DNA of 64,000 bases from Erysipelotrichaceae bacterium (GTDB taxonomy: Bacteria > Bacillota_I > Bacilli_A > RFN20 > CAG-826). The translations under genes were made by a program, and so were the position numbers. Below, piece after piece: positions 14,655 through 54,563 of the stretch (positions are counted from its first letter, which is position 1; each line of letters starts with the position of its first letter). Below the pieces are notes generated by a model. It was not told the DNA's origin. It did no database searches and saw only the letters and a list, made by a program, of their open reading frames with translations. The DNA lies in assembly GCA_022777645.1 (NCBI GenBank), contig JALFFX010000055.1:2705-66704 (forward strand), read 5' to 3'.

Positions 14655-14680
14655 GTGCATTGAAAAATGCACTTTTTCTT
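14654..14680 (+). terminator. rho-independent terminator
   Basis: GTGCATTG-AAAA-ATGCAC hairpin + TTTTTCTT running into TTAAAGATAA. Confidence 0.55.
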
Positions 14681-14745
14681 AAAGATAATTATTTATATTT
14701 AAAACAGTATGTTATACAATATAATCAACAAAGGAGTGTAATATT
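14680..14745 (+). promoter_or_regulatory. promoter with TTAAAGATAA element
   Basis: CTTAAAGATAATTATTTATATTT ... TACAAT ... AAAGGAGTG. Confidence 0.45.
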
Positions 14746-14943
14746 ATGGATGTAGTATATTATGCAATAATTTATTTAAAAGATATGCAAGACGTTTTCA
14801 CTGAAATACACATGAAACCGTTTGAGACAAAAGAAGAAGCTCAAAAATGTTGCAGCAAAGTGAATAACGTGTATGGTGAAAGAGTTCTTAAAACAAAAAT
14901 TAGAAGAACTGACTTAGCAAAAACCGGTGAATTCTGGTTATAA
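14746..14943 (+). CDS. hypothetical protein
   Basis: 65-aa ORF with RBS. Confidence 0.5.
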   Translation: MDVVYYAIIYLKDMQDVFTEIHMKPFETKEEAQKCCSKVNNVYGERVLKTKIRRTDLAKTGEFWL

Positions 14944-14964
14944 ATTATTTAGGAGAGATAATTA

Positions 14965-16152
14965 ATGAAAAGTAAATTTATTACTCACATCGTTTTAGAA
15001 GGATGTGATGGAGTTGGTAAAGACTCAATTATGGCTGATTTATGGCCAAAGTATAATTTCAGATACAGAGTATTAATGAGAGGTGAACTTTCAGATTTTG
15101 TTTATTCAAGAAAATATAATCGCGAATTTATCTCAACACAAAGAGGTTTACCTTTTCTTTATGTTTTAATTACAAAAGATGTCAATGAAATTCGTAATCA
15201 AATTATCAAACGTGGTGAAGATGTTGAAAATGAATTGAAAAAATTAGCAGACCAAGAACTTTTTAAAACTTGTGCAAAAATCTTTGAACAAGATTATCAT
15301 ATCATAGTTGTTGATGTCACAGGATTGACAATTCAAGAAGGTTCTGAGAAGGTTTTTAATGAAACATTAAAATATATTAATAATTTAGATAAAGATGACG
15401 AGCCAAATGAGTTTAATAAAATGTATATCAAAGGTGCAAATAAACTTGGACTTAAATGGACAGTTAGAAATAATCAACCATTTTTAGATGGTGAAATGAT
15501 TATGGCAGATGCACAATTACACAATGGTCGATTTGAAACATACGATAATCGTGATATGCCTCATAACTTAATTTTTAGTATCGGATATGATTATCAAAAT
15601 GAAGATACAATTGATGAATTTATGTCAAGACCATATGATTTTGCTTATCCAATTAATAGTAAAATTTTAGTTCGTGGTGAAATATATGATTACATTGATA
15701 AACTCTGTCGAAACAATTTAACATTAGTCACAACTGACTCAAAGTATATTCCACCATTTGAAAACTTAATTAGAGTTGATAAAGTATTTGGCGATGATTA
15801 TATCAAAATGTTAACACAAGCAAAAGCAACATTTTATTGTTCAAGAGATTTAGCATATCTTGAAATGATGACAGTAAGATGTTATGAAGCAGTAAGAGCA
15901 AATCAATTAATATTTGTTGATAGATTGACTGACCCTGAATGTAAAATTTTAAAAGCAATTCATGGGACAAGTTTAGATGACATTATATTGAGTAAATTAT
16001 GGTGTACTGAAAATACATTGACAAATAATTATAAAGAAATTATTAAAAATAAAGAACTTGTTAAATTAATTTTGAAAAATCAAAGACAATGGTATCAAAA
16101 TTTATGCAAAGAGTTATATAATAAAAAAGTTAAAAAATGGCGAAGAAAATAA
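14965..16152 (+). CDS. P-loop (deoxy)nucleoside-monophosphate kinase-like protein with ~200-aa C-terminal extension
   Basis: N-terminal VLEGCDGVGKDS resembles the thymidylate/dNMP kinase P-loop (xEGxDGxGKxT); 395 aa is far longer than standard dNMP kinases. Confidence 0.5.
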   Translation: MKSKFITHIVLEGCDGVGKDSIMADLWPKYNFRYRVLMRGELSDFVYSRKYNREFISTQRGLPFLYVLITKDVNEIRNQIIKRGEDVENELKKLADQELFKTCAKIFEQDYHIIVVDVTGLTIQEGSEKVFNETLKYINNLDKDDEPNEFNKMYIKGANKLGLKWTVRNNQPFLDGEMIMADAQLHNGRFETYDNRDMPHNLIFSIGYDYQNEDTIDEFMSRPYDFAYPINSKILVRGEIYDYIDKLCRNNLTLVTTDSKYIPPFENLIRVDKVFGDDYIKMLTQAKATFYCSRDLAYLEMMTVRCYEAVRANQLIFVDRLTDPECKILKAIHGTSLDDIILSKLWCTENTLTNNYKEIIKNKELVKLILKNQRQWYQNLCKELYNKKVKKWRRK

Positions 16153-16338
16153 TAACTTACGCTGAAAAACAATATGAAGTTTTTAGAGCAATTATTAGAA
16201 ATCTAACATTTAGTTTATAGATTTGAGAGTCTTATACTGAAAAAGCACACAAAAGTCTCAAAGATGACAAATTTAGTGTAAATGTCTTTTAAAAACAAGT
16301 TAGACTCTTATAACACATAAAGGAGTAATTTAAATAAT

Positions 16339-17466
16339 ATGGAAAATATTGTCTGGTCACATAGTAAACTAAACACATTATTAAATAATCCTGCAGAATA
16401 TTATTTATATTATGTGCAAGGAATTCAACCAAAAATTGAAAAAACAGCACTCTCAATTGGAAGTGCTATTCACTGGGGTTTGGAAAATCAAACATCAGAT
16501 TTACAACCTTATTATAATGAAAAAGGAAGTTTTGCTCAATGGAATAATTATACTGATGAGCAATGCTTAGCTGAATGTATTGTTGAAGCATTTTTAAAGA
16601 GACAGAAAGAAGTTATTGATGATATTCTTAAAGATGATGAAACATTAGAAATTTTAGATGTAATGTCTATTGAAAGAGAATTAAGACTCACTGGACATTT
16701 AGACTCTAAATTATATCCTGATGGACATGACTTCTTGGGCATTATAGACCTTTTAATTCTTACTAATAAAGGATTTATATTAATTGACTATAAAACATCA
16801 TCTCGTGATGTTGAGTGGAAATCTTACAAAAGTCAATTATTCAAATATGATTTCTTATTACAATATAATTTTCCAGAAATTCCATTATATAAAGTTGGAA
16901 TTATTAACTTAAAGAAAACTGGTATTAAGCGTAAAAAAGGTGAAAGTGATATTGCTTTCAGACAAAGAATTAGAGAACAATACATTGTTGATGACACATT
17001 AATCAATTGGCATTGTTATTCAAAAGCAGAGTTCTCTGTTGAAGAATTAAATCATTTTAAAGAAGATTTATCTGGAATGTTAGATGTTGGTAGAGGAATT
17101 GTTGAAAATCAATTATTTTATACAAATCTTAGCAACATTCAAGGTATGTATGGTGAGTCACAATATGCTGATATTTTCTATCATAGAGATGACGCTTGGT
17201 ATAGTTATATTATTAAAGATACTATTTATGACTTAGATGAACAAGCAATGTTATCAAAACGCAATTGTGAAGACATTGACATGCTAGTTCTTACAAATAA
17301 AAATGTTTTAAATAAATATAATTTATTCAAATCAGCTGCTGATAAGATTTTCAGTATCAACAAATCAACAACAAAACAACAATTGTTTGATGAATTGAAA
17401 GAAAATTATATTTGTTCTGATAAATTATTAGAACAATACTTTATCACAATGGAACACGAAAACTAA
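16339..17466 (+). CDS. PD-(D/E)XK family nuclease (RecB/Cas4-like exonuclease)
   Basis: GIIDLLILTNKGFILIDYKTS matches the motif II/III D...(D/E)xK core; lies beside an AAA_24 ATPase as in phage recombination modules. Confidence 0.55.
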   Translation: MENIVWSHSKLNTLLNNPAEYYLYYVQGIQPKIEKTALSIGSAIHWGLENQTSDLQPYYNEKGSFAQWNNYTDEQCLAECIVEAFLKRQKEVIDDILKDDETLEILDVMSIERELRLTGHLDSKLYPDGHDFLGIIDLLILTNKGFILIDYKTSSRDVEWKSYKSQLFKYDFLLQYNFPEIPLYKVGIINLKKTGIKRKKGESDIAFRQRIREQYIVDDTLINWHCYSKAEFSVEELNHFKEDLSGMLDVGRGIVENQLFYTNLSNIQGMYGESQYADIFYHRDDAWYSYIIKDTIYDLDEQAMLSKRNCEDIDMLVLTNKNVLNKYNLFKSAADKIFSINKSTTKQQLFDELKENYICSDKLLEQYFITMEHEN

Positions 17467-22368: not shown

Positions 22369-24186
22369 ATGAAAATAATTATTTGGGATTTTGAAGTATT
22401 TAAACATGATGTCTTATTAGGGACAATTATTGTTGACGGACAAAATCAAACTGTTTATCAAACATGGGATGAAGATGAAATTAGAGCATTCTATCAAGAA
22501 CATAAAAATGACATTTTTGTTGGACATAATTCTACATATTATGATGACCTTATATTAGAAGCAATTGTTCAGCATAAAAGTGCTTATGAAAAATCACAAC
22601 AAATAATTAATGGTGGAATTAGACGTAAAGCAAAATTTCATTTATACTCATATGATTTAATGTCAGTAAGTAGAACACCATTTAGTTTAAAATTAACTGA
22701 ATTGATTTGTGGTAAAAACATTCATACAACAGACGTTGATTTTAATTTAGATAGACAATTAACTGATGAAGAAAAAAAGTTGACTGAAAGTTATAATTTA
22801 GATGATTTAAAACAAACATTATATAACTTCAATATGTTCTTCAATCAGTTTAAATTAAGAATGCAAATTATTCAAAAATATAATTTAGATTTAATGCATA
22901 ATTTGAGAGTCACAGGAACACAATTGGCAGCTAATGTTTTAGGCGCACACAATGACCCTTCATTAAAACATAAACCAATTCCTGCTGAAATATATCCGAC
23001 ATTAAGATTAGAAAATAAACGTCTTCGTGAATTTTATTTAAATGAAGAGTTTAGACAAGGTAAATCTGATATAATTAATGTCGCTGGAGCAGAATTGACA
23101 ATTGCTGCTGGTGGAATTCATTCAGCAATTAAAAAATTTCATGCACCAAAGATATTTTATGCAGATGTATCTGGCTATTATAATCTTGTTATGATGAACC
23201 TTGATTTATTACCAAGAACAATGCCGACTGAATCAAAAGAAGCATATGAGTTTATGTATCATGAACAATTACGTTTAAAGAAACATCCGGAACTTGCTGA
23301 TGAACGTTCAATGTATAAGACAATTTTGTTGTCAGTATTTGGAGCAATGAATAATGAATATACAGATTTCTATGACCCTTGGAAAGCATTATTAGTTACT
23401 ATCAGCGGACAATTATTCTTAGTTGATTTATTAGAAAAAATGGAAGGACTTGTCACAGTTGTGCAAGCAAATACAGATGGTTTAATGCTAATACCAAATG
23501 ACTGGAATGATGAACCAAAACTTATTAAAATAATTGAAGAATGGGAAGCACGTACAGGATTTGTTATTAAAAAGGAACATGTGTATAATTTATGGCAAAG
23601 AGATGTTAACTGTTATATTTGTCAAGATGAAAAAGGTGGAGTAATTTTTAAAGGTGATACATTCAGAAATTATGTTGTTGATGATGTTCAATATGCATCT
23701 TGTCGATTATTTGATTGTAAAGAACCACCAATTATTGCACAAGGAGTAGGAGATTATTTGTTATATGGTAAATTACCAGAAGATACAGTAAAAGAAAAAG
23801 CTCAAAACTTAATTTTATTCCAATATGCATGTAAAAAATTAAGTTATAATTATATGACTGAAGATAAGATATTGTTATATAAAACAGAAAGAGGTAAAAT
23901 AAAAGAAGAGTTAATTTCATCTAAAGTAGTCAAACCATTAAATCGTGTATTTGCTGCTAAACCAGAATATGTTGAAGGTTTGCCAATAATCACAATTCTT
24001 ACAAAACATAAAGATGCTAATGGTAAACATAGTACATCGAAAGTCGCAAACTTACCTGACTCAGTATTTATCTATAATGAAGATATAACAAATGCTTATG
24101 ATAAATTAAAAGATAAAATAAATTGGCAATATTATATTGACCGTATTTACGAAAAAATATTAGATTTCATGCCGGAAGGAGATTAA
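22369..24186 (+). CDS. family-B DNA polymerase, compact phi29-like type (605 aa)
   Basis: ExoI DFE, ExoII HNSTYYDD (HNxxFD-like), motif A YADVSGYYN, motif B KTILLSVFG, motif C ANTDGLML. Confidence 0.55.
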   Translation: MKIIIWDFEVFKHDVLLGTIIVDGQNQTVYQTWDEDEIRAFYQEHKNDIFVGHNSTYYDDLILEAIVQHKSAYEKSQQIINGGIRRKAKFHLYSYDLMSVSRTPFSLKLTELICGKNIHTTDVDFNLDRQLTDEEKKLTESYNLDDLKQTLYNFNMFFNQFKLRMQIIQKYNLDLMHNLRVTGTQLAANVLGAHNDPSLKHKPIPAEIYPTLRLENKRLREFYLNEEFRQGKSDIINVAGAELTIAAGGIHSAIKKFHAPKIFYADVSGYYNLVMMNLDLLPRTMPTESKEAYEFMYHEQLRLKKHPELADERSMYKTILLSVFGAMNNEYTDFYDPWKALLVTISGQLFLVDLLEKMEGLVTVVQANTDGLMLIPNDWNDEPKLIKIIEEWEARTGFVIKKEHVYNLWQRDVNCYICQDEKGGVIFKGDTFRNYVVDDVQYASCRLFDCKEPPIIAQGVGDYLLYGKLPEDTVKEKAQNLILFQYACKKLSYNYMTEDKILLYKTERGKIKEELISSKVVKPLNRVFAAKPEYVEGLPIITILTKHKDANGKHSTSKVANLPDSVFIYNEDITNAYDKLKDKINWQYYIDRIYEKILDFMPEGD

Positions 24187-24189
24187 TTT

Positions 24190-24585
24190 ATGGAAAAGAA
24201 ATCAAAAACTTATTTACTTTACGAACTTAGAGATGGACTCAAAGATGGTAGAGAAAAAAATCAAGAACTACTTGCTATCGAAGATGATTTTATTGAAACA
24301 GTTAAAGCAACTGGTAAATTCGATAAATTTGCATTCATGTTTGATAATTGGCTAGTAGAAAAACAAAGACTTGAAGAAAGTATTAATAGAGTTCCAAAAC
24401 GTATTGCTGCTTGTAATAAGTTAATTGAAATGCTTGAAAAGAACAACAGCAAGACACCAATGGTTGAGATGATTTTTAACTTAGTAATTGATGCTCTTGG
24501 AATTGCTGAAACAGAAGAAGAAACTCAAGAAGAACAAACAGCTGAAATTGAACTTGAACTTCCAAAGTTTGAAGAAAACAACTAA
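24190..24585 (+). CDS. hypothetical acidic protein
   Basis: GGAAGGAGATTAATTT-ATG. Confidence 0.55.
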   Translation: MEKKSKTYLLYELRDGLKDGREKNQELLAIEDDFIETVKATGKFDKFAFMFDNWLVEKQRLEESINRVPKRIAACNKLIEMLEKNNSKTPMVEMIFNLVIDALGIAETEEETQEEQTAEIELELPKFEENN

Positions 24586-24596
24586 TTAATAATAAT

Positions 24597-24630
24597 AAAA
24601 CTCACAATTGATTATATTGTGAGTTTTTAT
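24597..24630. terminator. bidirectional rho-independent terminator at the convergence of + and - transcription
   Basis: AAAA-CTCACAAT-loop-ATTGTGAG-TTTTT. Confidence 0.65.
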
Positions 24631-24664
24631 TATGCGATAATTTTGACATCATCTTTATTTCAAA

Positions 24665-26743
24665 TTATAAATCACCATAATAATTTATTGCAGTTCTTAA
24701 ACAAGATACAAAACCATCATCAATAGTTTTTATTTTACCAATTTGTTTTTCATCATAACGGACATTTTCAATGTCAGCGATTGTTTGCTTACAATGTTGA
24801 TTTATTACAACATATTGTGAGCCAAATGCTTTATTTAATAACATTGTTGACTCTTCATAACTATCTGGAGTATAACGTTCAATAATAATATCATTATCAG
24901 CATCATACATTCCTGTCATACTCTCAATTTTACTTGAGTCAATATATACATTCTTATCAGGTGTAAATTCTTTCATCATCTTTAAAGCATCTTTAATATT
25001 GGCTCTAAATTTAGTCTCACGAATAACTTGAATTTGCGGATAAAGACCATATTTAACACCAATGTCTAAAACTTTCCAAGTATCACCTGTTCTAGCAAAG
25101 AAAGTTGTACTATAATCATAATCTAATTTATCTTCAGTAACAATATTAAGGTCTGTGAATGCTTTACCATAAGCAGCATATTTTTGTCCTTGGAAAACAT
25201 ATAATATAAGCATAGTAAATGCATCGACAATATCATCATGTTGAACAAATGGAAAAGCAATTAGACGTTGCTTAAGATTTTGCATGTTTTCTGTAAGAAT
25301 ATATTTATTTTGAGTTGCGTCCCATTTAGTTCTAACAAATACAACATTACCTGACTGTACATAATCTGATGCATATTGCATACGCTCAGACTTGTCCATA
25401 TTACCTGGGTTCCAAGCTCTCATACCTGGAACATCATCTTGTAATTCTGTCATTAATGGTGACCCATTTGCTTTATCTTCAATTATATTTATTATTCCTT
25501 CATAAACATTTTCTAGTGACATCAAATATTGCTTAGAACGTGTAAAATTTTGTTTTGCTTCTAAACAATCGACAATATAAATTGTTTTATTAATCTTATA
25601 TGCAAGTAAAGAACCCAAAAAGTCATTTTTTGATTTGTCTTTGACAGGGAAATCATGAGAACCATATATTACTGTTGCAACATTTTCATCAATTCGATTA
25701 TTATGTGTGTCCCACCCTGGAACATTAATACAATCTTCTTCTTTTATCATATCTTCCTTGATAATAGTTTGGTCAGATGCAATTGGATTTTGTAAATATT
25801 GTGTTTCCCATACTGTTGGTCCAACAAGTGCTTTGATACGAGAATAATCACCAAAACGTTCAGGCCATAAATAATCATCTTGTTTATATTCAATAATATC
25901 ACCTGATATAGGACATATTAAATAAGTGTGCTTTTTAAATTGTGCAGGTAAAACAACAAATATAAATTGTGATGCTAACACTTCATCATTTTTAATACGT
26001 CCAGTGACATCGTTTGGAGCCAATCTTTGTTGAATATTGAGAATAATATATTTATCAGGATTATTAACACGAGAAGGCAATGTATTACGGAAGAACGACC
26101 AAGCATTATTCATTTCTTCTTTATCTTTTCTTGCTGCTTCAGCATTTGTCAAGTCGTCACATATAAGAATATCTGCGCCATAACCTGTCATAGCATCTCT
26201 GTTCATAGAATATAATTCTGCAGCACGATTGTCAACAAGTTTAAATGCTGAGTTTGTGACCAATTGTATGTCAGGGAAAAAGAATTTAAAACGCTCACTG
26301 TTTAATACACGTTGACGAGCAATATTCATTTCACCTGCTAAACCTTGAGTGTGAGATATTGATGCTAACTTGATAGGGTCATTTAGCCACATCCATACAC
26401 CACCGAGAACATTAAATGTTTTTGATTTTGTATGACGAGGAGGTAAGTTGATATTACCATTTTGTTTATTTTGACGAACATCAATTATTTCTATATCATC
26501 CCATGTTTCATCGCCGACTGGCTCAGGCAAAATGATTTCTTTTTCAGGTCCATCATAACCTAACCAAGGTCGACAAAGATATTGAAAAAATTCACAGTAA
26601 AATTGAATTATCTTACCATCAATAAATGGAGCAGGGTCAGCTTCACACCAAAAATCTTTTACAAATGAATAAAAGTCTTTTTGATAGAGTTGACGATATA
26701 GAATTTTTTGAGTTTGCGATAGTGTTTTGTAATTATATAACAT
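24665..26743 (-). CDS. terL: terminase large subunit
   Basis: N-terminal ATPase with P-loop-like LPPRHTKSKT and Walker B ILICDDL, plus a C-terminal nuclease-sized domain; 692 aa. Confidence 0.65.
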   Translation of the reverse strand: MLYNYKTLSQTQKILYRQLYQKDFYSFVKDFWCEADPAPFIDGKIIQFYCEFFQYLCRPWLGYDGPEKEIILPEPVGDETWDDIEIIDVRQNKQNGNINLPPRHTKSKTFNVLGGVWMWLNDPIKLASISHTQGLAGEMNIARQRVLNSERFKFFFPDIQLVTNSAFKLVDNRAAELYSMNRDAMTGYGADILICDDLTNAEAARKDKEEMNNAWSFFRNTLPSRVNNPDKYIILNIQQRLAPNDVTGRIKNDEVLASQFIFVVLPAQFKKHTYLICPISGDIIEYKQDDYLWPERFGDYSRIKALVGPTVWETQYLQNPIASDQTIIKEDMIKEEDCINVPGWDTHNNRIDENVATVIYGSHDFPVKDKSKNDFLGSLLAYKINKTIYIVDCLEAKQNFTRSKQYLMSLENVYEGIINIIEDKANGSPLMTELQDDVPGMRAWNPGNMDKSERMQYASDYVQSGNVVFVRTKWDATQNKYILTENMQNLKQRLIAFPFVQHDDIVDAFTMLILYVFQGQKYAAYGKAFTDLNIVTEDKLDYDYSTTFFARTGDTWKVLDIGVKYGLYPQIQVIRETKFRANIKDALKMMKEFTPDKNVYIDSSKIESMTGMYDADNDIIIERYTPDSYEESTMLLNKAFGSQYVVINQHCKQTIADIENVRYDEKQIGKIKTIDDGFVSCLRTAINYYGDL

Positions 26744-27246: not shown

Positions 27247-28200
27247 CTATTCTCCTAATTCACTTAAACCTTTAATCTTACTTGCATAAGTCGACCAGTT
27301 TGTGGCTGTTTTATAACTTTCTACTAAATTATCAGGTACATAGATAAACCCTTCAGTGGTACTTGTCTTGATTGGCGTATAGCTAAAGACATTTGAACTT
27401 CCCAACGTTGCAACTTCATTTGCTCTTAAAATCAAGGTTGTTAATTTTTCACAATAATAAAATACTTCACTTCCTCCAACACGTTTTGCTTTTGGCAAAT
27501 CAACAGTTTTTAAATTTAAGCATTTATTAAAAGCCCAACCACCGATTTGCGTTACTTCTGGAAAAACTACTGTTGTTAATTTTTCATCCCCATCAAATGT
27601 ATTGTTTCCAATAGTTTTTAATTGTGGGAGATTTATTGTTACCAAATGTCTGCAATAACGAAATTCACTATTAGAGGTTGAAGTTAATAACGGAAAATCT
27701 ATTGTAGTCATTTGTCCTGCATTAAATGCATAGCCGCCAACTTTGGTTGCTTTGGGGAAAATAGCTTTTTCCCCTCTATAGCCATTAAATGCATAACTCT
27801 CAATTGTAGTCACTTCTGGAAAATTATATGATGTTAATTTATAACAATTAGAAAAGGCCCAATCACCAATAGTTGTAATATTGGTTGGAGAAAAATTTGC
27901 GATTGCTAAATTTTCACATTGATAGAAAGCATAAATAGGAATAGTAGAAATATTTGGAAGATTAACGGTTGTTAAGTTATTACATCGATAGAATGAATAA
28001 GGTCTAATACTTGCCACATTACTTGTTATTTCGGTTATGCTTCCGTCAATAAGTGCGTCAATATTGCCACCACCTATTTCAATACTGTCTATTTCGTTTG
28101 CCATATTTATTGGCTGTATCGTTCCGGTTGTGCCTTTTTTAGAACGGATAGAATTAGCAATATCACTAAATACTGCGTTTAGATTTATTTCGCTTGCCAT
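27247..28200 (-). CDS. leucine-rich-repeat protein (BspA/TpLRR-like); tail/receptor-binding associated
   Basis: ~10 tandem ~23-aa units of the form TTIxxYAFxxCxxLxxVxFP; stop/start abuts the fibre gene. Confidence 0.6.
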   Translation of the reverse strand: MASEINLNAVFSDIANSIRSKKGTTGTIQPINMANEIDSIEIGGGNIDALIDGSITEITSNVASIRPYSFYRCNNLTTVNLPNISTIPIYAFYQCENLAIANFSPTNITTIGDWAFSNCYKLTSYNFPEVTTIESYAFNGYRGEKAIFPKATKVGGYAFNAGQMTTIDFPLLTSTSNSEFRYCRHLVTINLPQLKTIGNNTFDGDEKLTTVVFPEVTQIGGWAFNKCLNLKTVDLPKAKRVGGSEVFYYCEKLTTLILRANEVATLGSSNVFSYTPIKTSTTEGFIYVPDNLVESYKTATNWSTYASKIKGLSELGE

Positions 28201-30683: not shown

Positions 30684-33125
30684 TTATTTTTCTTCACGAA
30701 ATACTTTAATAATATGTTCAGCACCAAATGTATCACTACCTTCGTCTTCAGGATGTGTTTCAACAATAATTTCAACATCTAATCCTTTTTTATTAAAGAA
30801 TTTTTCAATTTCATTATCTAACCAGATGTGTTCTTTCCAGTCCATCATATCAACGTCAATTGAGAGATAATCTTCTCCATCAACTTTGTTGTTAACAAAG
30901 TATACATTTTCACTGAAATCAGTATTTAATGAACGTAAATGTTTTTCTAATTCTTTAGCAAAATCTTTCAATTCTTCATTAACTTTTATATATTTACTTG
31001 TATCTTTTAAATATTTCTTTGGAAGTAAAATACACATTACAACATTATTTTCCCATTCAAGTATTTCTGTAAAGCCATCTTGTTTAAGCGCTTTAGCAAT
31101 ATCTTCAAAAATATGGTCTTCATAATATTTTGGTTCTATACCAAGCTCTTCAGCAACACTTTGCATTTCGTAATTCATGTCATCTTCATAATTGATTGTA
31201 TATTCTTCATTTGCATCAAAAATTTCTAACATATCTTTATCAATACGATATTTGAAATCAAATAATGAGTCATATTCTTCACCATCAATTATACTTTTTT
31301 CATTGAGTTTTGTGAGTAATGCTTCTAAATGAGGGAATTTACCACTAAATTGAGCATCTTGTACTAAATTTTCATTTAATTGTTTATTTTTCATAATACT
31401 ATCCTTCTTTCTTCTTCTAGAATTATGTATACTTTGAGGCAATGAATAATTACCAGATAACACATCATCAGCAGTTAATGATTTAAACACATGTCTGCAA
31501 TATGGTCTTGTGCTTAAAAATGTAGGTTCACCTATAATATCTTGCACAGTTTGAATGTTGTGTTCTTTTATATATTTTTCAATTGCTTCAATTTTCTTTT
31601 TTTCTTTTGTCGGATTATATGCTGATTTCCATTTTGCATCAACATATATTTTCCCTTGTTTACTGATATGGTCATCTGCACTATCATCATGTTTACTACA
31701 AGCAAAGAAAATTTTTGGATTACCATAATTACGATATTTTTTAATTTCTTCTTCAGTCATCTTTGTAATAACTTCATCAGTTAAACTATCTTTGAATGAC
31801 ATTTCTTCACTTTCAACAATTAGTTTAAGAGTTTTTAATTTATCAAGATAACCTTTATGTCTAAATTCTTTAAAAATTTGATTTTCTTTACTATATTCAC
31901 CTTCAGTATCTAAACCTGAACGTCTAAATGAATATATTTTATCAATTAATTTATTAATGCTTTCTAGAGAAGGTTTATTTAAAATGCTGTTATATTCCTT
32001 AACTAATTCATTAACTTCATTAGAAACGTCAATTTGAATGATTTCTTCCTTACTTGGCTCTTTTATCCAACCTGTATATATAGAATATATACCTTTTGAA
32101 AATAAATCAGATGTATCATTTTGTACATATACTTCTACATTAATATTATTAAATTTAATATCATATGCATCATTAAACATAGATTTATATGCATCATAAA
32201 TTTTCATCATGTTTTCATCTGACTCATCAACAATGATATGAACATCAAAATCTGACTTTGATGTATAATTATATGATGCATTGCTGCCGATGACAATTAC
32301 ATCACTTATTGTAATATCAATATCTGCATCAGCTAACCATTCTTTATATTTTTCAACAATTAACTCAATATGCTCTTTAATTTCAGGTTTTAATGTACCA
32401 TCTTCATTCCACAATTTTGGATTGAGAGTTTTTCTAATTGCATCATGAACACTGACTGAATCATGCAATTCTTCATAACAATCTAATAAGAATTCTCTAA
32501 ATGATGGTTTGTATTTCTTTCCATTTGCATTTATTTCTTTTAATTCATTAATCAGTGCGATATTTAATCTATATAAATCATCAGCAAATTCTTTTATTTC
32601 ATCAACTGGTCGATATTCGATTAAACCTAAACCATTAGCATAAAATTGTTTTGCTGTTTTATTATATTCAATATTATTTTTAACTTCTTCATTTAATTGT
32701 TTAACAGCTGATGAAATAAATCTTACTAAATTCCAACCAAAGTTTGTAAGATTATTTACTTTATTACTTGTTTCTGTATTTTCTTCAGATGAATCCCAAT
32801 CAAGACGTAAAATTCTTTTTAATTGATTTAACTCATAATCATGTATTACATCTTCAATTTTACTATCTGTTGTTCGTTTTTCAAGTTGTTGTTTAAAATA
32901 TTGAACCCAATAAAAATTACTAAAACCTGATACTTTGAAAAAATTATCATTCACATCAGCTTTAAGTATTCTTTTTAAAAAAGATGCTTTTTCTTCAGGT
33001 AAATCTAAAAAACAAACATGATGATTTCTATCAACTAATTCATCATGATAACCATATTGTTTATAAAGTTTGGCAAATTGAACCATTCCAAACTGATAAT
33101 TATTTACTAAACATACAACTTTCAT
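30684..33125 (-). CDS. large protein with central Pol-beta-type nucleotidyltransferase motif (candidate virion-associated effector)
   Basis: start set at MKVVCL (TAATATG coupling with the upstream gene); IVIGSNASYNYTSKSDFDVHIIVD is the GS-x10-D-x-D minimal NTase signature. Confidence 0.5.
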   Translation of the reverse strand: MKVVCLVNNYQFGMVQFAKLYKQYGYHDELVDRNHHVCFLDLPEEKASFLKRILKADVNDNFFKVSGFSNFYWVQYFKQQLEKRTTDSKIEDVIHDYELNQLKRILRLDWDSSEENTETSNKVNNLTNFGWNLVRFISSAVKQLNEEVKNNIEYNKTAKQFYANGLGLIEYRPVDEIKEFADDLYRLNIALINELKEINANGKKYKPSFREFLLDCYEELHDSVSVHDAIRKTLNPKLWNEDGTLKPEIKEHIELIVEKYKEWLADADIDITISDVIVIGSNASYNYTSKSDFDVHIIVDESDENMMKIYDAYKSMFNDAYDIKFNNINVEVYVQNDTSDLFSKGIYSIYTGWIKEPSKEEIIQIDVSNEVNELVKEYNSILNKPSLESINKLIDKIYSFRRSGLDTEGEYSKENQIFKEFRHKGYLDKLKTLKLIVESEEMSFKDSLTDEVITKMTEEEIKKYRNYGNPKIFFACSKHDDSADDHISKQGKIYVDAKWKSAYNPTKEKKKIEAIEKYIKEHNIQTVQDIIGEPTFLSTRPYCRHVFKSLTADDVLSGNYSLPQSIHNSRRRKKDSIMKNKQLNENLVQDAQFSGKFPHLEALLTKLNEKSIIDGEEYDSLFDFKYRIDKDMLEIFDANEEYTINYEDDMNYEMQSVAEELGIEPKYYEDHIFEDIAKALKQDGFTEILEWENNVVMCILLPKKYLKDTSKYIKVNEELKDFAKELEKHLRSLNTDFSENVYFVNNKVDGEDYLSIDVDMMDWKEHIWLDNEIEKFFNKKGLDVEIIVETHPEDEGSDTFGAEHIIKVFREEK

Positions 33126-33126
33126 A

Positions 33127-33618
33127 TTAATCGTAATTCCCACTTCCTGGAACAGGATTACTTGTGACAACAAACATTGATGCAAGAGATTTTGTTGCTA
33201 ATAAATTCATTAAATCTCTACCAAATGCACTTTGGTTCCACCATACTTTATCATCACCAGAAATCATGCTTCTATCTAAATCATATGTTTTGCTAAATCC
33301 ACCAACACTAGCAGATGTCATAATGCCACCAGTCGTAGGACTGCCACCAGCAATATCTGCTAAGCTTGTTGCACCAGATTTTACTTTTGCTTGAGCTTGA
33401 CCAATTATCCATGCATAATGAGCAATTGCTAAACTCATTGCATATTTCCAGTCAACACCAAAAATAGAATAGAAAATTTTATTATTTGCAATTGGATATA
33501 AATTATTAAAAAGTGTATCTATATTAGAGACATTTGTAAATTGAGGCATCCAAAACAAAAAATCTTCTTTTGTGAATTCAGGATTTTCTCTATCAATAAG
33601 TGTTCCTAAAATAGCCAT
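33127..33618 (-). CDS. hypothetical protein
   Basis: 163-aa ORF. Confidence 0.5.
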   Translation of the reverse strand: MAILGTLIDRENPEFTKEDFLFWMPQFTNVSNIDTLFNNLYPIANNKIFYSIFGVDWKYAMSLAIAHYAWIIGQAQAKVKSGATSLADIAGGSPTTGGIMTSASVGGFSKTYDLDRSMISGDDKVWWNQSAFGRDLMNLLATKSLASMFVVTSNPVPGSGNYD

Positions 33619-34543: not shown

Positions 34544-35047
34544 TTATTCATAATAGAATATTTGACCACATGTGAATGTCCAGTCTTGAAGTTGAGCTGT
34601 ATCACCAAATGTAATATCAGCCATCTTTTTAATATAGCAGTCATTACATGTAGCAATAATGTTTGTACCTGATAAATTATCAACATATGCTGATGTGACT
34701 TGTAATTTTAAACCAGGAACATTTTCTTGAATAGACTCAAATATTGAACAAATTTGAGCTAATCTAATAACCATATCTGAGACTTGTCTAATTTGAACTT
34801 TACATTCACCAGTTTTATCATTATTTTTGTTATGAACCCATGAACCAGTGTAGTCACCTTCAGTTTCCCAAGCATCTTTATTACGAGTAAGAGAAATTTC
34901 TCCTAAGAAACTGCCGACTCCACCAGCTTCAATACCTGCTCCACCAATTGAGAATTGTTGTCCTCTGATTGACTCAGGAATATATTGATTATCTGGTATT
35001 GTTATTGTAAGAATATAATCCGTTAACGAATATCTATTAGTAGCCAT
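34544..35047 (-). CDS. tail tube protein (XkdM-like) candidate
   Basis: 167-aa beta-rich protein immediately after the sheath candidate. Confidence 0.4.
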   Translation of the reverse strand: MATNRYSLTDYILTITIPDNQYIPESIRGQQFSIGGAGIEAGGVGSFLGEISLTRNKDAWETEGDYTGSWVHNKNNDKTGECKVQIRQVSDMVIRLAQICSIFESIQENVPGLKLQVTSAYVDNLSGTNIIATCNDCYIKKMADITFGDTAQLQDWTFTCGQIFYYE

Positions 35048-35060
35048 ATATCAACCCTCC

Positions 35061-36437
35061 TTAGAAAACCTTTCCAACAATTTCGATTGTTCTAATTGAA
35101 TAACTATCAGCAATTACTAAATAAATTGATGGTAGCATATGATTTTGCAAATCTTCAGTAGATAATGAAGTAAATGGTAAAATTTTGAATAAATAACCTT
35201 GTGTCACTGGAGTATTTTTGCTGACAATTAAGTATCTACCTGTTGAGTCATATAAATCTTCAGTTGACCAGATTTTTTCTGTTGATAAATAACCAAATGC
35301 TTTATATCTTTGTAATTCATCAGACATTGCTGCTGAAACTAAACTTAAACCAACTTGATTATATCTTAGTTTATTTCTCAAAACACCAAGAATTCTATCA
35401 GTGACAGTTTGAGTGAGAACAATTCTAATAAAGTCATTTACTAAATCTGTTCCATTAGTCATATTGCCACCGTATTCCATAATACCATAAGATGATAAGT
35501 TAATATCACAATTGATATTGACTTTTTTAAGATTTTCAAATACACTATTATCATCAACAATTGGTGAAGTAAGAACACCTGTATTTTCAGTGATACCATC
35601 ACTTAATGTAGGTTTAAACATTGAAACAGTTTCTGGTGTGTAGCAATAATCTGCAATTGTTCCTCTATAAACGTTAATTTGTGATAAGTAAGCCAACACA
35701 GTCATTTCAATACCTTGAGGACCATATTTAACAATAATGTTTGATAAATTTGCAACACTATTTAATGGATTTTCATAATCATCATTACCAACATATTTCA
35801 TTATGTAATATGTTTTGTTTTCACTATATTCTGTAGCTAGTTTATATTCATTTGTATTATCTTTTAAATAACCAACTGAAATTGTTTTTGTTTGAGCAGT
35901 CGCTGTATAGAATGCACCAGCATTAATATCTTCTTGAGATGAAGGTTGAACAGCTGGACGAACAGCTTTACATGCTTTAGCACTGACTGTTAAACTATGT
36001 AAATATGTGACTAATTTCTTTTCACTAATTCCACTAAATAAAGAATTGTTATTCATCTTTGTTGCAACAATTTGCATAACAACATTTGAACATGTAGATG
36101 CAATAACAATTTCATCAGTTGGTAATTCAGCAATTGCTTCAACAATGGCTGTAGCATCTGATTCATTATTACCTGTAGCAGAAATTTTAACATAGTGAAT
36201 TTGTTGTCCACCATTGTTAAAGAATGCTAACACGTATGTATAAAGAACACTAGATGTAGAACCACCTTGGCTTGTAAAATCACTAATACTTGTGAAATAA
36301 GTATCAGTTCCATTTTCAAAATCAGTTATATTTGAATTACAGTCAATAAGAACGCCAATATTTCTAGAACCACTGACAGACGCACTTGTATAATGACTAA
36401 TGTTAACATTTACGAAATTTTTAGAACTGAGTGCCAT
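35061..36437 (-). CDS. tail sheath protein candidate
   Basis: 458 aa; sits after the head-tail connector genes and before the tube-sized gene. Confidence 0.45.
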   Translation of the reverse strand: MALSSKNFVNVNISHYTSASVSGSRNIGVLIDCNSNITDFENGTDTYFTSISDFTSQGGSTSSVLYTYVLAFFNNGGQQIHYVKISATGNNESDATAIVEAIAELPTDEIVIASTCSNVVMQIVATKMNNNSLFSGISEKKLVTYLHSLTVSAKACKAVRPAVQPSSQEDINAGAFYTATAQTKTISVGYLKDNTNEYKLATEYSENKTYYIMKYVGNDDYENPLNSVANLSNIIVKYGPQGIEMTVLAYLSQINVYRGTIADYCYTPETVSMFKPTLSDGITENTGVLTSPIVDDNSVFENLKKVNINCDINLSSYGIMEYGGNMTNGTDLVNDFIRIVLTQTVTDRILGVLRNKLRYNQVGLSLVSAAMSDELQRYKAFGYLSTEKIWSTEDLYDSTGRYLIVSKNTPVTQGYLFKILPFTSLSTEDLQNHMLPSIYLVIADSYSIRTIEIVGKVF

Positions 36438-36492: not shown

Positions 36493-37047
36493 TTATTGTA
36501 TTTTTGTAATTACAAATTCAACATCTTTTAATTGATATTTTTCATCAAAATAACCAGCTGATGTTGTTTTTTTAAAATTATGACGACATTGCAATTGTAA
36601 AGTTAAATCACAACGAGGCCATAATGTATTATTAATAAATTCCTTTTGGTCTATAGGAAATTCAATACCTTTAATATATACTCCTGCATTTCTTAATGTA
36701 GTAGCAACTTCACTTGTTTTAAATAATGCTCTAATTTGTTGAGCACACATATGACACATATTACCATATATTTTTAATATAAAGTTATATGTTGCAAGTG
36801 AAGTCATAGTATCATCTTCTTCTGGAATAATGACGTTGTTTTCATTTTCTTGTTCAACAACATCAAATGTCATAAACACATCAGTTAATTTAATTGAAAA
36901 TACATCAGTATTATTAAGAATTTCAGTTAAATCTGCTCCACGAACTGAAGCAGCATTTAAAATTCTATCACCTGAAATGCCTGTTTGTTCAATTAATTGT
37001 TCACGAACACGTATAATTAATGTATCATAATCAATTGAAGTAATCAT
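36493..37047 (-). CDS. head-tail connector / neck protein candidate
   Basis: position between major capsid and sheath. Confidence 0.4.
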   Translation of the reverse strand: MITSIDYDTLIIRVREQLIEQTGISGDRILNAASVRGADLTEILNNTDVFSIKLTDVFMTFDVVEQENENNVIIPEEDDTMTSLATYNFILKIYGNMCHMCAQQIRALFKTSEVATTLRNAGVYIKGIEFPIDQKEFINNTLWPRCDLTLQLQCRHNFKKTTSAGYFDEKYQLKDVEFVITKIQ

Positions 37048-37915: not shown

Positions 37916-39007
37916 TTAGTTTGTGAAATCGTAGTATCTTACGATGCCAGCATCATTTGAGCTCTCATTGTATGGTAATTGAACTTGAGAAACTTGACCA
38001 ACGAAGATAGAAGTATAAGCAGCTTTATCAACGTTTGGTAATGTGACATAGTGTTGAATTGGATATGGCATATCCATTCTGACGTAATCTTTTTCTTTAC
38101 GATAAGCAACTACTCTACCTTTGCTATTAGTACCAATTGCATTTAAGTCTGGTCTACCAACAATTGTGAGTTTGAATTTTTCTCCACCTTGTGCTTTTGC
38201 TAAGTTATGTTCCTTAATGAAATCAAATAAGGAATTGCTGTACAATGCACTAAATCTGGAAACTAAGTCTGACATCATCCATGTTGGAACAAGGAGTGTG
38301 TCTGGTAATAAATTGACGTTCATGTTGCTATCATTTAAGACATCTAAGAAGATACCATTAATAAATGCAACAACGACATCATCATTATATCCTTCAAAAC
38401 CAGAACCAGTTGTAGCGGAGTTCGTGATTGAAGTGACTTTAACTTTTGTTGAGTTGAATAAACCTGTGTCACCATTAATACCTAAATAAGCAACGTTTTG
38501 GCAGAAGTAATCCCAACCAGCTCTAATACCATCTTGATAAATTTGTTCGATGGATTTAGAAAGAGCAGCTTTCTTCATTTTTTCTAATTCTACAAATCTT
38601 AAATCATAAGCGATTTCATATGTGTAGACTTTTGCGGTATTTTGTGTCATACCAGCATTGACTCTTGGAATAAGGTTTCCACCATTTCCGAAGAGATTTC
38701 TTGTATCATTCATAATACCAGCCCAGTTGACTGTGTAGTATTCAATGAAATCTACAAATCCACCACCAGTTTCGATTGGGACATCTTGAGCATAAGTGAA
38801 GAAGACTTTTGGCTCATATGTCTTTTGGTGTAATTTTGCTAATTTTGTTTGTAAGAAGGTGAAGTTAGCATCGAAAACTTTGGTGTCATTAACGAACATT
38901 CTCTTTTGCATGCCAGTTAATGGGACAGCTTTTCCTCTATGTTTACGAGCGATAGAGTCAGAAAATCTGTATTTTGTTTCACTAGATGTAAATACGTTAT
39001 TCATCAT
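37916..39007 (-). CDS. major capsid protein (DUF2184-like)
   Basis: 363 aa; preceded by a decoration-like and an acidic scaffold-like gene in the DUF2213-DUF2190-DUF2184 arrangement. Confidence 0.55.
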   Translation of the reverse strand: MMNNVFTSSETKYRFSDSIARKHRGKAVPLTGMQKRMFVNDTKVFDANFTFLQTKLAKLHQKTYEPKVFFTYAQDVPIETGGGFVDFIEYYTVNWAGIMNDTRNLFGNGGNLIPRVNAGMTQNTAKVYTYEIAYDLRFVELEKMKKAALSKSIEQIYQDGIRAGWDYFCQNVAYLGINGDTGLFNSTKVKVTSITNSATTGSGFEGYNDDVVVAFINGIFLDVLNDSNMNVNLLPDTLLVPTWMMSDLVSRFSALYSNSLFDFIKEHNLAKAQGGEKFKLTIVGRPDLNAIGTNSKGRVVAYRKEKDYVRMDMPYPIQHYVTLPNVDKAAYTSIFVGQVSQVQLPYNESSNDAGIVRYYDFTN

Positions 39008-46452: not shown

Positions 46453-48210
46453 TTAATCAGCTACCTTAATATAAATATAACCTGTTGAATAAATATTACC
46501 TGATGTTTCAGGAGTTTCAAAATAAATATCTGACTCAGTAAATTGTAAGTATGTGTTCTTTAAATTTAGCAATGTATCTGTTGCACCTTTGATAGAAGTG
46601 CCAATTGCAAAAAATGTTGACATAGCATTTTTATTAATATCAGCTTTTTGAACAACTGAGCTGATAGATGTTGCATTCAAATCTTCACCAAGACTAATAT
46701 TATTTAAGTAATACAATAAATCATTAACAATTGACTTTTCAACATCTGACTCAGCATGATGTAAAGTTCCATTTGTTCTATTTGTTGCAAAGTTGAATGA
46801 GTTATTAACTAACATTAATTGTACTTTAATGCCATATTTCACTGTTGTTTTACCATCAGTTTTTTCATCATATTGTAAGAATGTATAAGGTGTGCACTTT
46901 TTCCAATAAATATTATAAGTAAGATTTGACGCTTTATTAATTTGATAATTAACAACTTCACCTGTAATTTGATTTTTCTCACAAACATTTGTATTGTCTG
47001 TAAATGTTTCAACAGTTGCATTTTCTTGTAATTGATAATATTGTCCAAATGTTGTTGACCAGTTATCTGGTTGTGATGTTGTTAGAATATAAACATTATT
47101 GACTGAGTCATAACTGTAGATTGTATTAGCAGACCAAGTTGAACTTGTATTTGCTGTTGCAGTTAATTGAGTATATTTTGAATAATTTTGTATCCAGTCA
47201 GCTGGTTGAGTTAAAATTTTTGTATATGATAAACCAGCATAAGGAATAGTTGGAATTCCTGGAGTCATTTTATTATAAATTAATGAACCTAAAATTGATT
47301 TATCAATATGAGCATTTTCATCATATCTAACACAAATATAAGTACAATGTTGAGGAACAACAGTTCCATCATCCATAATTTCATCAGTTGTTGATTTATT
47401 ATCATAAGCCCAAACATCTTTAATTCCTTCGATATTAAGAATTGCACCTTCAAGTCCAGATAAAACTGTTGTAGCTTGATTGCCCATTGACTGAATTCTT
47501 CTACTGCGTAAACTTTCATCAGTTTCACGAACATTACCTACAACAGCATCAGTTTGTTGATATACTTTCCATTTACCATATTCAACTGTTTGATTAATAA
47601 ATCCTGAATTATCTTCATTTAAACTATTCCAGTCAACTTTTGAAATATCAGTACCATTACCTATTGCAATATTTGCACCAAGTTCTTGACATTCAACATC
47701 TGTTAATAATTGAATTGCTCCATCTCCTTCAGCATCCCATGAAATAACATTATTTGGTGAAATAACTGAACCATCTGCTTGATTAATACCTGGGTTTTTC
47801 CATAACCATTCTTTACCTGCTTTATCAATAAATGAGATAAATTTTACATTTGTTTGAGCAACACCAGAAATGTTTTTGACATATAACTGAGCAGTTGATG
47901 CAGTTTCATTGATACGAGAGATATTATTATATGAGCAAAGAATGTCTAAAAAGGAGCCTGTCGCAGATGCTGGGTCAAGCATATCATATGAATATTGAAT
48001 AACTTGACACATATTATTGATAATTAAAGCAATACTATTAATCCATTGACCATCAGCATTTGCTGAATTAACATCAATGTCATTACCGTAAATTCTCTTC
48101 ATTTGTTTAATAAGAGTGTCACGAATATCTGCGAAAGATGCGACCTGAATGCCGCCTTGTGTAATTTTTATAAAACTGCTAATATCAACATTTTGCTCAA
48201 ATATTGCCAT
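46453..48210 (-). CDS. baseplate J-like protein
   Basis: N-terminal ...DIRDTLIKQM...ASATGSFLDILCSYNNISR resembles the baseplate-J signature A.G..LD.lg...G..R. Confidence 0.5.
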   Translation of the reverse strand: MAIFEQNVDISSFIKITQGGIQVASFADIRDTLIKQMKRIYGNDIDVNSANADGQWINSIALIINNMCQVIQYSYDMLDPASATGSFLDILCSYNNISRINETASTAQLYVKNISGVAQTNVKFISFIDKAGKEWLWKNPGINQADGSVISPNNVISWDAEGDGAIQLLTDVECQELGANIAIGNGTDISKVDWNSLNEDNSGFINQTVEYGKWKVYQQTDAVVGNVRETDESLRSRRIQSMGNQATTVLSGLEGAILNIEGIKDVWAYDNKSTTDEIMDDGTVVPQHCTYICVRYDENAHIDKSILGSLIYNKMTPGIPTIPYAGLSYTKILTQPADWIQNYSKYTQLTATANTSSTWSANTIYSYDSVNNVYILTTSQPDNWSTTFGQYYQLQENATVETFTDNTNVCEKNQITGEVVNYQINKASNLTYNIYWKKCTPYTFLQYDEKTDGKTTVKYGIKVQLMLVNNSFNFATNRTNGTLHHAESDVEKSIVNDLLYYLNNISLGEDLNATSISSVVQKADINKNAMSTFFAIGTSIKGATDTLLNLKNTYLQFTESDIYFETPETSGNIYSTGYIYIKVAD

Positions 48211-48669: not shown

Positions 48670-49734
48670 CTAATAATTTAATCCTAATGTTGATTTAATA
48701 ATACTTACTGCTCTTGCAATAATTTTTAATTCAAATGTTTCTCCTCTGTTTTCAAATGCATAATCAATTTGTCTAATCATATATGCACCAAGGTTTGGAG
48801 TATCTGTATTTACGAAAGTTGTATCAATATAATTTGAACTAAAATTTGTTTGTGCACCTTGAAGTGAATTTTCACTCATATTAAGTAATGAATTATCAAT
48901 AATGATAATATCACCTGTCTTAAAACAAAATGTTGGTATTAAATATATCTCAACACCATCTTTTGTAAGACGAGGATTTCCTTTTTTAAAACTAATTGTT
49001 TGTGAATTAATTCTAATTTGTCGTTTATCATTTATATTGCTCACATTAACTATTCCACCATCTATAGATGCATCTGCATTTACTGTAAAATCTGATGTTT
49101 GATTAGCAAGTGTTTCAGCTAATGTTGCAGGCGTTCCCCAGTTAGCACTCACTTCTGTTAAAAATTGATGTCTTAAGCTTTCATTAAGATGGCTTGAGTC
49201 AATTCCAGAAGTTAAGCATATATAATTTAAGGCTGCATATAAATTAATGCCTGAGTTAAGGTTAAAATTAATTCTACTTTGTGAATAACCAGCAACTAAT
49301 GTTGATGCAAATATAATATGACATTTATGGTCACGTCTCATTTGTATCTCATTAGAAATATATGCGATTTCACCACTAAAATAACATTGTAATTGTTGAG
49401 TCATATAACCAGCCCAGATTTCAATTTTATAATATTGTCCTAAAATAATTTGTGAAATTGTTGAATAAGTTAAGTTACTAATTTCACAAACACCATTATC
49501 TTCTAATGCTGTTAGTTTCTTTACACCTTTAACACTTATATTTAATTGGTCTGGAATAAATTCAGTTTCTAATATTGTATTACCATTTTCACGATATTGA
49601 TAATTTGTAATTTTACTACTACCAAAAATTAGAGGTTTAACTTTATACAACTTACTATAAAGTCGAACTTCTAATTGTCTCATCCAACAAAAATTGTTGA
49701 CATTTTTTCCTAAATTAGTAATATTATTAGCCAT
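48670..49734 (-). CDS. baseplate hub/spike-region protein
   Basis: position. Confidence 0.4.
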   Translation of the reverse strand: MANNITNLGKNVNNFCWMRQLEVRLYSKLYKVKPLIFGSSKITNYQYRENGNTILETEFIPDQLNISVKGVKKLTALEDNGVCEISNLTYSTISQIILGQYYKIEIWAGYMTQQLQCYFSGEIAYISNEIQMRRDHKCHIIFASTLVAGYSQSRINFNLNSGINLYAALNYICLTSGIDSSHLNESLRHQFLTEVSANWGTPATLAETLANQTSDFTVNADASIDGGIVNVSNINDKRQIRINSQTISFKKGNPRLTKDGVEIYLIPTFCFKTGDIIIIDNSLLNMSENSLQGAQTNFSSNYIDTTFVNTDTPNLGAYMIRQIDYAFENRGETFELKIIARAVSIIKSTLGLNY

Positions 49735-54532: not shown

Positions 54533-54563
54533 AATGAACACCTCTTACGTTATATTCTTTTAA

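Follow-up and report, generated by a model that had tools for sequence, protein, structure and literature searches.

Results

Gene call and domain architecture

The current study concerns a phage gene in the middle of a 64,000-nucleotide stretch of DNA (the window) that was assigned to an Erysipelotrichaceae bacterium (GenBank assembly GCA_022777645.1, contig JALFFX010000055.1, positions 2,705 to 66,704 of the forward strand). The gene lies within a run of virion genes and encodes a protein whose predicted domain order runs from N-terminal modules over a bilobal Pol-beta-type nucleotidyltransferase (NTase) and a core of the MuF2 type of minor head proteins to two acidic alpha/beta modules (Table 1). 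A first-pass annotation, made from the sequence without database searches, had placed an open reading frame (ORF) of about 814 amino acids at positions 30684 to 33125. The ORF is real, but it comprises 813 codons plus a stop, starts with the ATG at position 33125 and fills the interval on the minus strand, and the plus strand of the same interval holds no ORF in the frame of these coordinates. An AGGAAG-like ribosome-binding site is located about 15 nt 5' of the ATG. A longer version with a TTG start, extending to position 33185, is unlikely, as it would overlap the upstream gene. The spacing to both neighbors is tight, with 1 nt between the stop codon of the DUF4054 gene and the ATG, and 3 nt between the stop codon and the start of the downstream ORF of 98 amino acids. 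No terminator-like site flanks the gene, and the counts from promoter and terminator scans were at chance level. A 98%-identical protein of 813 amino acids is encoded in an identical gene order on an independent gut-metagenome contig (ENA ERZ943882), so that the long fusion cannot be put down to misassembly.

An apparently active nucleotidyltransferase domain

The segment IVIGSNASYNYTSKSDFDVHIIVD had been read in the first-pass annotation as a minimal NTase signature. The bare pattern hG[GS]-x9-13-DhD was also found in 1.2% of shuffled versions of the protein, so that the motif alone is weak evidence; there is no other occurrence in the approximately 19,700 residues of window ORFs with at least 100 amino acids. 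The NTase call was nevertheless borne out: the catalytic residues are conserved, the fold of an NTase was modelled with confidence, and one homologue passes the Pfam threshold. In an alignment of 29 NTase domains with 25 to 62% identity to the protein (A1), residues G280, S281, S291, D292, D294, H296, Y347, W353, R401, N415, K419 and R422 are invariant. The sequence features of a Pol-beta motif are present as I-G280-S281 followed by D292-F-D294, and E331 lies within a predicted strand (E114-121 of the model). At the level of sequence, the invariant set is the GS/DxD/third-carboxylate constellation of Pol-beta NTases, and R401, N415, K419 and R422 form a conserved basic cluster in the helical second lobe. 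An AlphaFold2 model based on A1 reached a mean predicted local distance difference test (pLDDT) score of 89.4, with an alpha/beta core that is followed by a helical bundle; this confident fold did not uphold the chance match that the first-pass annotation had considered as an alternative. The metal-binding triad is intact, and the NTase is apparently active.

In the PHROGs database, residues 231 to 441 correspond to phrog_36119 (E = 3e-33). In Pfam, the matches to NTP_transf_2 (PF01909; 15.5 bits, cut-off 21) and Polbeta (PF18765; 17.2 bits, cut-off 26.9) lie exactly over the motif, and the 60%-identical homologue P0002 scores 24.3 for NTP_transf_2 against the gathering score of 21. There was no Pfam match of the protein to the RlaP (PF10127), RelA_SpoT, CD-NTase or MNT family profiles. 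RlaP is an RNA-repair NTase of phages (PMC7824862, PMC12776372), and this identity was rejected for lack of a PF10127 match. Weak matches in Pfam and PHROGs, namely to DUF559, MarR, DUF7376 and Adenyl_cycl_N, were regarded as noise or as echoes of the fold. A search of the NTase profile against PDB sequences gave weak matches over the catalytic motif, e.g., to DrrA (E = 0.047) and to MNT proteins (E = 0.1 to 0.9). The Pol-beta fold, the GS...SDxD motif and the third carboxylate are shared with MNT proteins (HEPN-MNT, AF0614 [1ylq] and HI0073), the AMPylators DrrA/GlnE, the RNA NTases TENT5/TUT/GLD2 and CD-NTases, and the larger known NTases have a helical second lobe as well. With sequence E values of 0.05 to 1 and no family-specific Pfam match, the likeness to all of these is on the level of the fold only and uninformative with respect to the substrate. 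Based on sequence and model, the membership of the protein in the Pol-beta NTases is secure at the fold level, and no subfamily is assigned.

A putative MuF2-type core behind the NTase domain

The first-pass annotation had noticed a loose resemblance of the segment RPYCRH to the end of MuF/SPP1 gp7-type head-morphogenesis domains. This proved well founded at the family level. A homologue search with residues 455 to 813 returned almost nothing besides close relatives and a MuF-like family, including three small proteins of 224 to 235 amino acids that match residues 471 to 582 at 42 to 48% identity. A five-sequence profile (A2) was run against 1.84 billion cluster representatives and matched 537 proteins at E values of ≤1e-3 (481 at ≤1e-10). 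The members are mostly 190 to 340 amino acids long, carry the domain in their C-terminal half and share the consensus IFYLCSxHxDCAxDHxxYQGKIYVDxxWR ... TRPNCRHYF. In a Pfam scan of 66 members with A2-profile E values below 1e-26, Phage_min_cap2 (PF06152) was found in 16 (best E = 2e-26), Phage_Mu_F (PF04233) as a weak match in one (0.0095) and the toxin domain Ntox50 on one. The match of P0065 and P0066 covers positions 209 to 281 of PF06152, exactly over the core that they have in common with the protein. Moreover, four members match phrog_581, "minor head protein," with E values of up to 3e-36.

PF06152 has been termed MuF2; it belongs to the MuF superfamily, as does PF04233 (MuF1), which includes SPP1 gp7 and Mu gpF (PMC5576092). 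P0064 and P0065 are the stand-alone proteins most closely related to the core, and each of their genes comes directly after a portal gene (phrog_533, E = 3e-41 and 4e-39) with a slight overlap, which is consistent with the reported position of muf genes immediately downstream of portal genes (PMC5576092). By eye, the core also aligns with gp7 and Mu F over H-x4-G-K-I...D-x2-[FW] and the subsequent P-x-C-R-[CH]. A search of the MuF-like profile against PDB sequences gave nothing meaningful. The AlphaFold2 model of the core has pLDDT values of 86 to 98. The N-terminal half of the stand-alone MuF-like proteins is replaced in the protein by the NTase, and its core is the only MuF-like one in the window; the two ORFs that follow the portal gene (132 and 420 amino acids) have none.

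Accessory modules

The protein comprises at least five modules in one phage polypeptide, and its syntenic orthologues vary in module content. The N-terminal 218 residues gave no significant family match, and a dedicated homologue search with them retrieved one near-identical fragment only. Their second half is mobile: it is N-terminal in P0002 and P0003, and it comes after the NTase in P0005 to P0007. For the acidic C-terminal modules C1 and C2, a fold search in BFVD with the model of residues 455 to 813 returned one uncharacterised match (E = 2.7e-4) and noise, and neither module was identified. C2 (residues 718 to 807) has a homologue with 33% identity (E = 1e-4) in a small ORF of its own (positions 5260 to 5535 of contig L010), directly upstream of the gene for P0054, an ART-PolyVal-NTase fusion protein. 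The modules seem to stay associated even without being fused.

A motif of about 35 residues, K(G/D)ESKEDFISRFM..(E/K)EYP..KQRLAVAYSYW, ends three syntenic orthologues (P0002, residues 846 to 876; P0003, 771 to 801; P0004, 889 to 919) and comes after the ART-PolyVal domain in P0054 (residues 406 to 436); it is absent from the protein studied here. It may represent a further targeting or adaptor element of polyvalent proteins. In P0003, an HNH-like stretch recognised by eye, MQIDHIKEGNRTDDRLDNLKPLTAQENKAK, stands at residues ~590 to 625 instead of a MuF-like core.

Distribution of the NTase family and its link to virions

A homologue search over 5.8 billion proteins yielded 63 clusters, nearly all of which resemble the protein over residues ~219 to 450 only. 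The NTase module is found at the N terminus, in the center or at the C terminus of proteins of 450 to 1400 amino acids, and its partners include LRR_5, DUF5662, MORN and, in P0054, ART-PolyVal (PF18760), an ADP-ribosyltransferase that has been described in injected polyvalent proteins (PMC5512222). In phages related to the one studied here, which are represented by metagenomic contigs of 78 to 85 kb, a gene with an NTase domain always comes directly after the DUF4054 gene, e.g., in exactly the same place on the approximately 80-kb contigs L004 and L005 (980 and 491 amino acids). On the unrelated large T4-like contig L014 an NTase-domain gene stands directly behind the sheath and tube genes and in front of a baseplate gene, and on the large T4-like contigs L011 and L013 such genes are located a few genes from Portal_T4.

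Stand-alone NTases of about 230 to 265 amino acids, all of them annotated as hypothetical, are encoded by T4-like cyanophages, Lak megaphages and Maribacter phages. ORF156 of cyanophage S-CREM2 is a full-length NTase homologue (hhalign probability of 100%, E = 1.4e-43; tblastn E = 7e-31). For this protein, 6 peptides (15.2% coverage) are reported from mass spectrometry of CsCl-purified virions, and its neighbors ORF154, ORF155 and ORF160 are listed in the same proteome (PMC10665884, Table 3). In cluster-C T4-like cyanophages (S-CREM2, contig L012; S-CRM01 g127 to g125, contig L006), the genes for the stand-alone NTase and a cytidylyltransferase form a small conserved cassette together with a short ORF. 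The partners in the S-CREM2 cassette, the cytidylyltransferase and ORF155, have no counterparts in the window.

A recurrent link was observed between the NTase and LRR_5 proteins of the BspA type, i.e., leucine-rich repeat (LRR) proteins. An LRR_5 gene is located four genes downstream of the gene studied here, another one (contig L014, positions 14587 to 16416) two genes downstream of the P0033 gene on an unrelated contig of 217 kb, and in five clusters (P0014 to P0016, P0026 and P0028) NTase and LRR_5 are fused in one polypeptide of about 1300 amino acids. By analogy with LRR-guided bacterial effectors, fusion and adjacency might hint at a protein substrate, which is speculation.

Genomic setting

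The window is AT rich (G+C content of about 28%), and a tRNA scan of it detected no tRNA genes. Genes on the plus strand form a block that ends at about 24.6 kb; the virion genes are in a minus-strand block, which starts near 61 kb and reaches down to 24.6 kb. A PDB search with three large plus-strand ORFs gave a signal for an SNF2-like helicase as the sole result, for the ORF at positions 9629 to 11209. Transcription of the two blocks, which are about 80 nt apart, converges at approximately 24000 to 24700, and the cumulative GC skew has its maximum in the same interval, at the junction of the plus-strand block (end at 24585) and the large terminase gene (end at 24665).

The order of the virion genes (24665 to 56906) is unusual: portal, tape-measure, Dit-like and baseplate genes come first, protease and head genes next, and then neck, sheath and tube genes, with the DUF4054 adaptor-like gene, fibre genes and large terminase at the end of the block. 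The placement of the gene among tail and fibre genes in the first-pass annotation was accurate, with sheath, tube and adaptor genes upstream and fibre and LRR_5 genes downstream. The same annotation had expected a tape measure or structural protein in this slot; a better tape-measure candidate, however, is the 443-residue protein encoded next to the Dit-like and baseplate genes. In line with the annotation, which saw no tape-measure-like coiled coil, residues 215 to 813, the part that was modelled, are mixed alpha/beta with no long coiled coil predicted.

Some further observations concern the virion block. Directly upstream of the tape-measure candidate, two small ORFs of 109 amino acids (52784 to 53113) and 93 amino acids (52554 to 52835, in the -1 frame relative to the first) overlap in the layout that is classic for frameshift-made tail-assembly chaperones; no clean slippery heptamer was identified in the overlap ACAAAACTTTTTCCC. 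The ORF of 420 amino acids on the minus strand (53279 to 54541), which is the second after the portal gene and thus near the usual muf site, encodes a Ser/Thr/Asn-rich, fibre-like protein with no family match. The long C-terminal extension of the 744-residue DUF2213 protein could be a scaffold or other cargo. Within the GenBank phage collection, no relative of the major head protein exceeds 28% identity.

Table 1 Coordinates of the gene, its modules and the annotated neighbors in the 64-kb window
Feature	Position	Strand	Remarks
Whole gene, 813 amino acids plus stop	30684..33125	-	ORF, ribosome-binding site, gaps to neighbors, independent contig
N-terminal region, residues 1-218; residues ~100-218 are a mobile module	32472..33125	-	
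Pol-beta-superfamily NTase domain, residues 219-450	31776..32471	-	Predicted alpha/beta core and C-terminal helical lobe
Catalytic motif IVIGSNASYNYTSKSDFDVHIIVD, residues 277-300 (G280, S281, D292, D294, H296)	32226..32297	-	Invariant columns in A1
E331 codon, predicted third metal-binding carboxylate, strand NVEVYV	32133..32135	-	≥90% conserved in A1
MuF2-type minor-head-protein core, residues ~470-585 (FFACSKH..DH..QGKIYVD..W ... TRPYCRH)	31371..31718	-	A2, PF06152/phrog_581 relatives
RPYCRH motif, residues 540-545	31491..31508	-	A2; family consensus TRPNCRH
Acidic alpha/beta module C1, residues 596-710, net charge -17	30996..31340	-	Common to P0002, P0003 and P0004
Acidic alpha/beta module C2, residues 711-813, net charge -13	30687..30995	-	Common to P0002
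Portal gene	55149-56906	-	First of the virion genes in transcription order
Probable tape measure, 443 amino acids	51219-52550	-	N-terminal coiled coil, hydrophobic C-terminal segment; directly upstream of Dit-like gene
Dit-like gene	49734-51206	-	Followed by baseplate genes
Baseplate wedge protein, phrog_6	46453-48210	-	PHROG match
DUF2213 protease fusion, 744 amino acids	42302-44536	-	DUF2213 (XkdF-type prohead protease) in first ~175-260 residues
Major head protein	37916-39007	-	Virion block
Neck terminator	36493-37047	-	Virion block
Sheath	35061-36437	-	Virion block
Tube	34544-35047	-	Followed by two small ORFs, then DUF4054 gene
DUF4054/E217_gp27 adaptor-like virion protein	33127-33618	-	Immediate upstream neighbor of the gene
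98-amino-acid ORF, then 92-amino-acid ORF	Directly downstream of the gene	-	Gene order
Fibre-like protein, 581 amino acids	28202-29947	-	After the 92-amino-acid ORF
LRR_5 protein	27247-28200	-	After the fibre-like protein
Large terminase	24665-26743	-	Last of the virion block

Discussion

Relation to described systems

The combination of domains had not been recognised as a described system in the first-pass annotation. This assessment did not hold, because the protein fits the MuF-fused effectors and the polyvalent proteins of the literature (PMC3482391, PMC5512222, PMC5576092). Effectors carried by MuF domains and polyvalent proteins, including enzymes with a Pol-beta fold, are already known; what is new are the particulars, i.e., an uncharacterised bilobal NTase family, its location ahead of a MuF2 core that is truncated, the separation of the gene from the portal gene and an uncultured lineage of gut phages. 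Like the MuF proteins and toxins (SPP1 gp7, Mu gp30/F, the EFV toxin and proteins bearing RelA/SpoT or APK domains), the protein has the core H-x4-G-K-[IV]-x3-D-x2-[FW] and then P-x-C-R-[CH]. As in the MuF toxins, which include Pol-beta-fold relatives, an enzymatic effector is joined to a carrier domain that is associated with the head.

Polyvalent proteins are large multi-domain proteins of shuffled effector modules that are encoded with packaging and virion genes and predicted to be injected together with the DNA (PMC5512222). Several of their features were found here, namely multiple modules, free recombination among homologues and linkage to virion genes. The Pol-beta NTases of polyvalent proteins have a minimal architecture with four strands plus three helices and are usually fused to ArdC-N in conjugative elements of firmicutes (PMC5512222), whereas the NTase of the present protein is a bilobal domain of about 230 residues that forms a separate family (phrog_36119) and stays below the threshold for PF18765. 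The homologues of S-CREM2 (ORF156), S-CRM01, S-H34, S-N03, S-B68, the Lak megaphages and Maribacter phage Molly belong to the same full-length NTase family with the same conserved residues, but they stand alone, with neither a MuF-like nor any other fused module. In the three phages whose surroundings were examined (S-CRM01, Molly and S-CREM2), the NTase gene is located outside the main structural blocks. Finally, the proposed logic of a virion-preloaded enzyme that acts before phage gene expression is that of T4 Alt and the N4 virion RNA polymerase; the present protein differs from these agents of ADP-ribosylation and transcription, respectively, in its fold, packaging signals and chemistry, and its packaging is a proposal.

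A putative head-packaged and ejected effector

With some reservation, we regard it as probable that the protein is a polyvalent effector that is tethered by its MuF-type core, packaged in the capsid and ejected, and that its NTase nucleotidylates a target in the host. Virion delivery is plausible because of the MuF2 core, the recurrence of NTase genes in structural modules and the proteomic detection of the S-CREM2 homologue. As the gene is one of a series of closely spaced virion genes on one strand, we infer that the protein would be made late, along with the virion proteins. Its MuF-type core would dock it to the portal or procapsid in the manner of SPP1 gp7, a MuF protein that binds the portal and is present in one or two copies per capsid (PMC5576092). 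The head would thereby come to contain a few copies, which would be ejected along with the DNA upon infection, in line with the injection proposed for MuF-fused and polyvalent effectors (PMC3482391, PMC5512222). In the new host cell, the NTase would use a nucleoside triphosphate to nucleotidylate a host macromolecule, which may be a protein or an RNA or DNA end. This modification would precede any phage gene expression and might serve host takeover or counter-defence.

Several observations weigh against this scenario. The core of the protein itself has no significant match to PF06152 or PF04233, and its link to MuF is thus transitive; comparisons of the MuF-like alignments with the single sequences of SPP1 gp7 and Mu F by hhalign were not significant. 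Only the C-terminal ~115 residues of the approximately 250-residue MuF domain are present, and the gene is about 22 kb away from the portal gene instead of adjoining it. The MuF-like core was found in just 2 of the 63 NTase-domain clusters, and syntenic orthologues such as P0003 to P0008 lack it, so that the core does not define the locus. The effector part lies N-terminal to the core, which is the opposite of the order in MuF toxins. The proteomic signal of S-CREM2 ORF156 is modest and may possibly reflect a contaminant, and fold searches with the models of the protein yielded no structural neighbor that would indicate a substrate.

Some of these observations would also suit a late cytoplasmic enzyme that is never packaged and acts in the producing cell, for example by modifying the ends of phage DNA or RNA or, during morphogenesis, by nucleotidylating a protein of the virion or the host. 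In that case, the MuF-like segment would do no more than bring the enzyme to procapsids under assembly, or it would have another role. The retention of the NTase without a MuF-like core in most syntenic orthologues, the distance from the portal gene and the position of the stand-alone homologues of S-CRM01 and Maribacter phage Molly among non-structural genes speak for such an enzyme. We consider it the main alternative, but an unlikely one, as ORF156 was detected in purified virions of S-CREM2, the NTase family is fused with ART-PolyVal, a domain of injected polyvalent proteins, and the NTase recurs inside the structural modules of unrelated phages.

A MuF-type polymorphic toxin of interbacterial competition, with the NTase as toxin and a small downstream ORF as immunity protein, is an explanation that we regard as highly improbable. 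MuF domains do carry toxins, including Pol-beta-related enzymes of the RelA/SpoT type (PMC3482391, PMC5576092), one relative of the MuF-like core bears Ntox50, and two small ORFs follow the gene. However, the established layout of N-terminal MuF, C-terminal toxin and adjacent immunity gene is not the one found here: the domains are in the opposite order, conservation of the downstream ORFs beside homologues is lacking and no immunity gene is evident, and the enzyme is a classical GS/DxD NTase rather than a RelA/SpoT domain. Moreover, such toxins are tied to temperate phages (PMC5576092); no integrase search was made in the window. The lineage studied here has a myovirus-like genome of about 80 kb and no close cultured relative. 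It is still harder to credit that the protein is a structural tail protein or variant of the tape measure with an NTase motif that arose by chance or is a dead relic. The location of the gene downstream of the sheath and tube genes and the frequency of the bare motif in shuffled sequences would fit this explanation, but the catalytic residues are invariant in homologues down to 25% identity, the NTase fold is confidently predicted, a separate tape-measure candidate is present and the modelled part of the protein shows no long coiled coil. We regard this explanation as essentially excluded.

Beyond the ejected effector proposed for this locus, a much wider generalisation is conceivable, although it is doubtful: NTases of the phrog_36119 type could constitute a widespread, so far unrecognised class of virion-carried enzymes that are injected and nucleotidylate a host component before phage gene expression, which would amount to a new, pre-emptive chemistry of anti-defence or takeover. 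NTases of this type are encoded by gut myoviruses, T4-like cyanophages, Lak megaphages and phages of flavobacteria. A defence protein, to which the recurrently linked LRR modules would possibly guide the enzyme, or an RNA or DNA end might be the target. Packaging would have been solved differently in each lineage, here perhaps by the capture of a MuF2 core.

Virion-preloaded enzymes do their work within the first seconds of an infection; T4 Alt and the N4 virion RNA polymerase are among the few that are understood. The protein described here links an uncharacterised and widely distributed family of phage NTases to a head-targeting module of the MuF type. If the NTase is indeed injected and modifies a host factor, nucleotidylation would join the repertoire of ejected-effector chemistries, and the family would offer a tractable means of learning how hosts are disarmed by abundant uncultured gut phages and cyanophages. 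If the enzyme is active only in the producing cell, it would still represent an unannotated enzyme family in need of a name.

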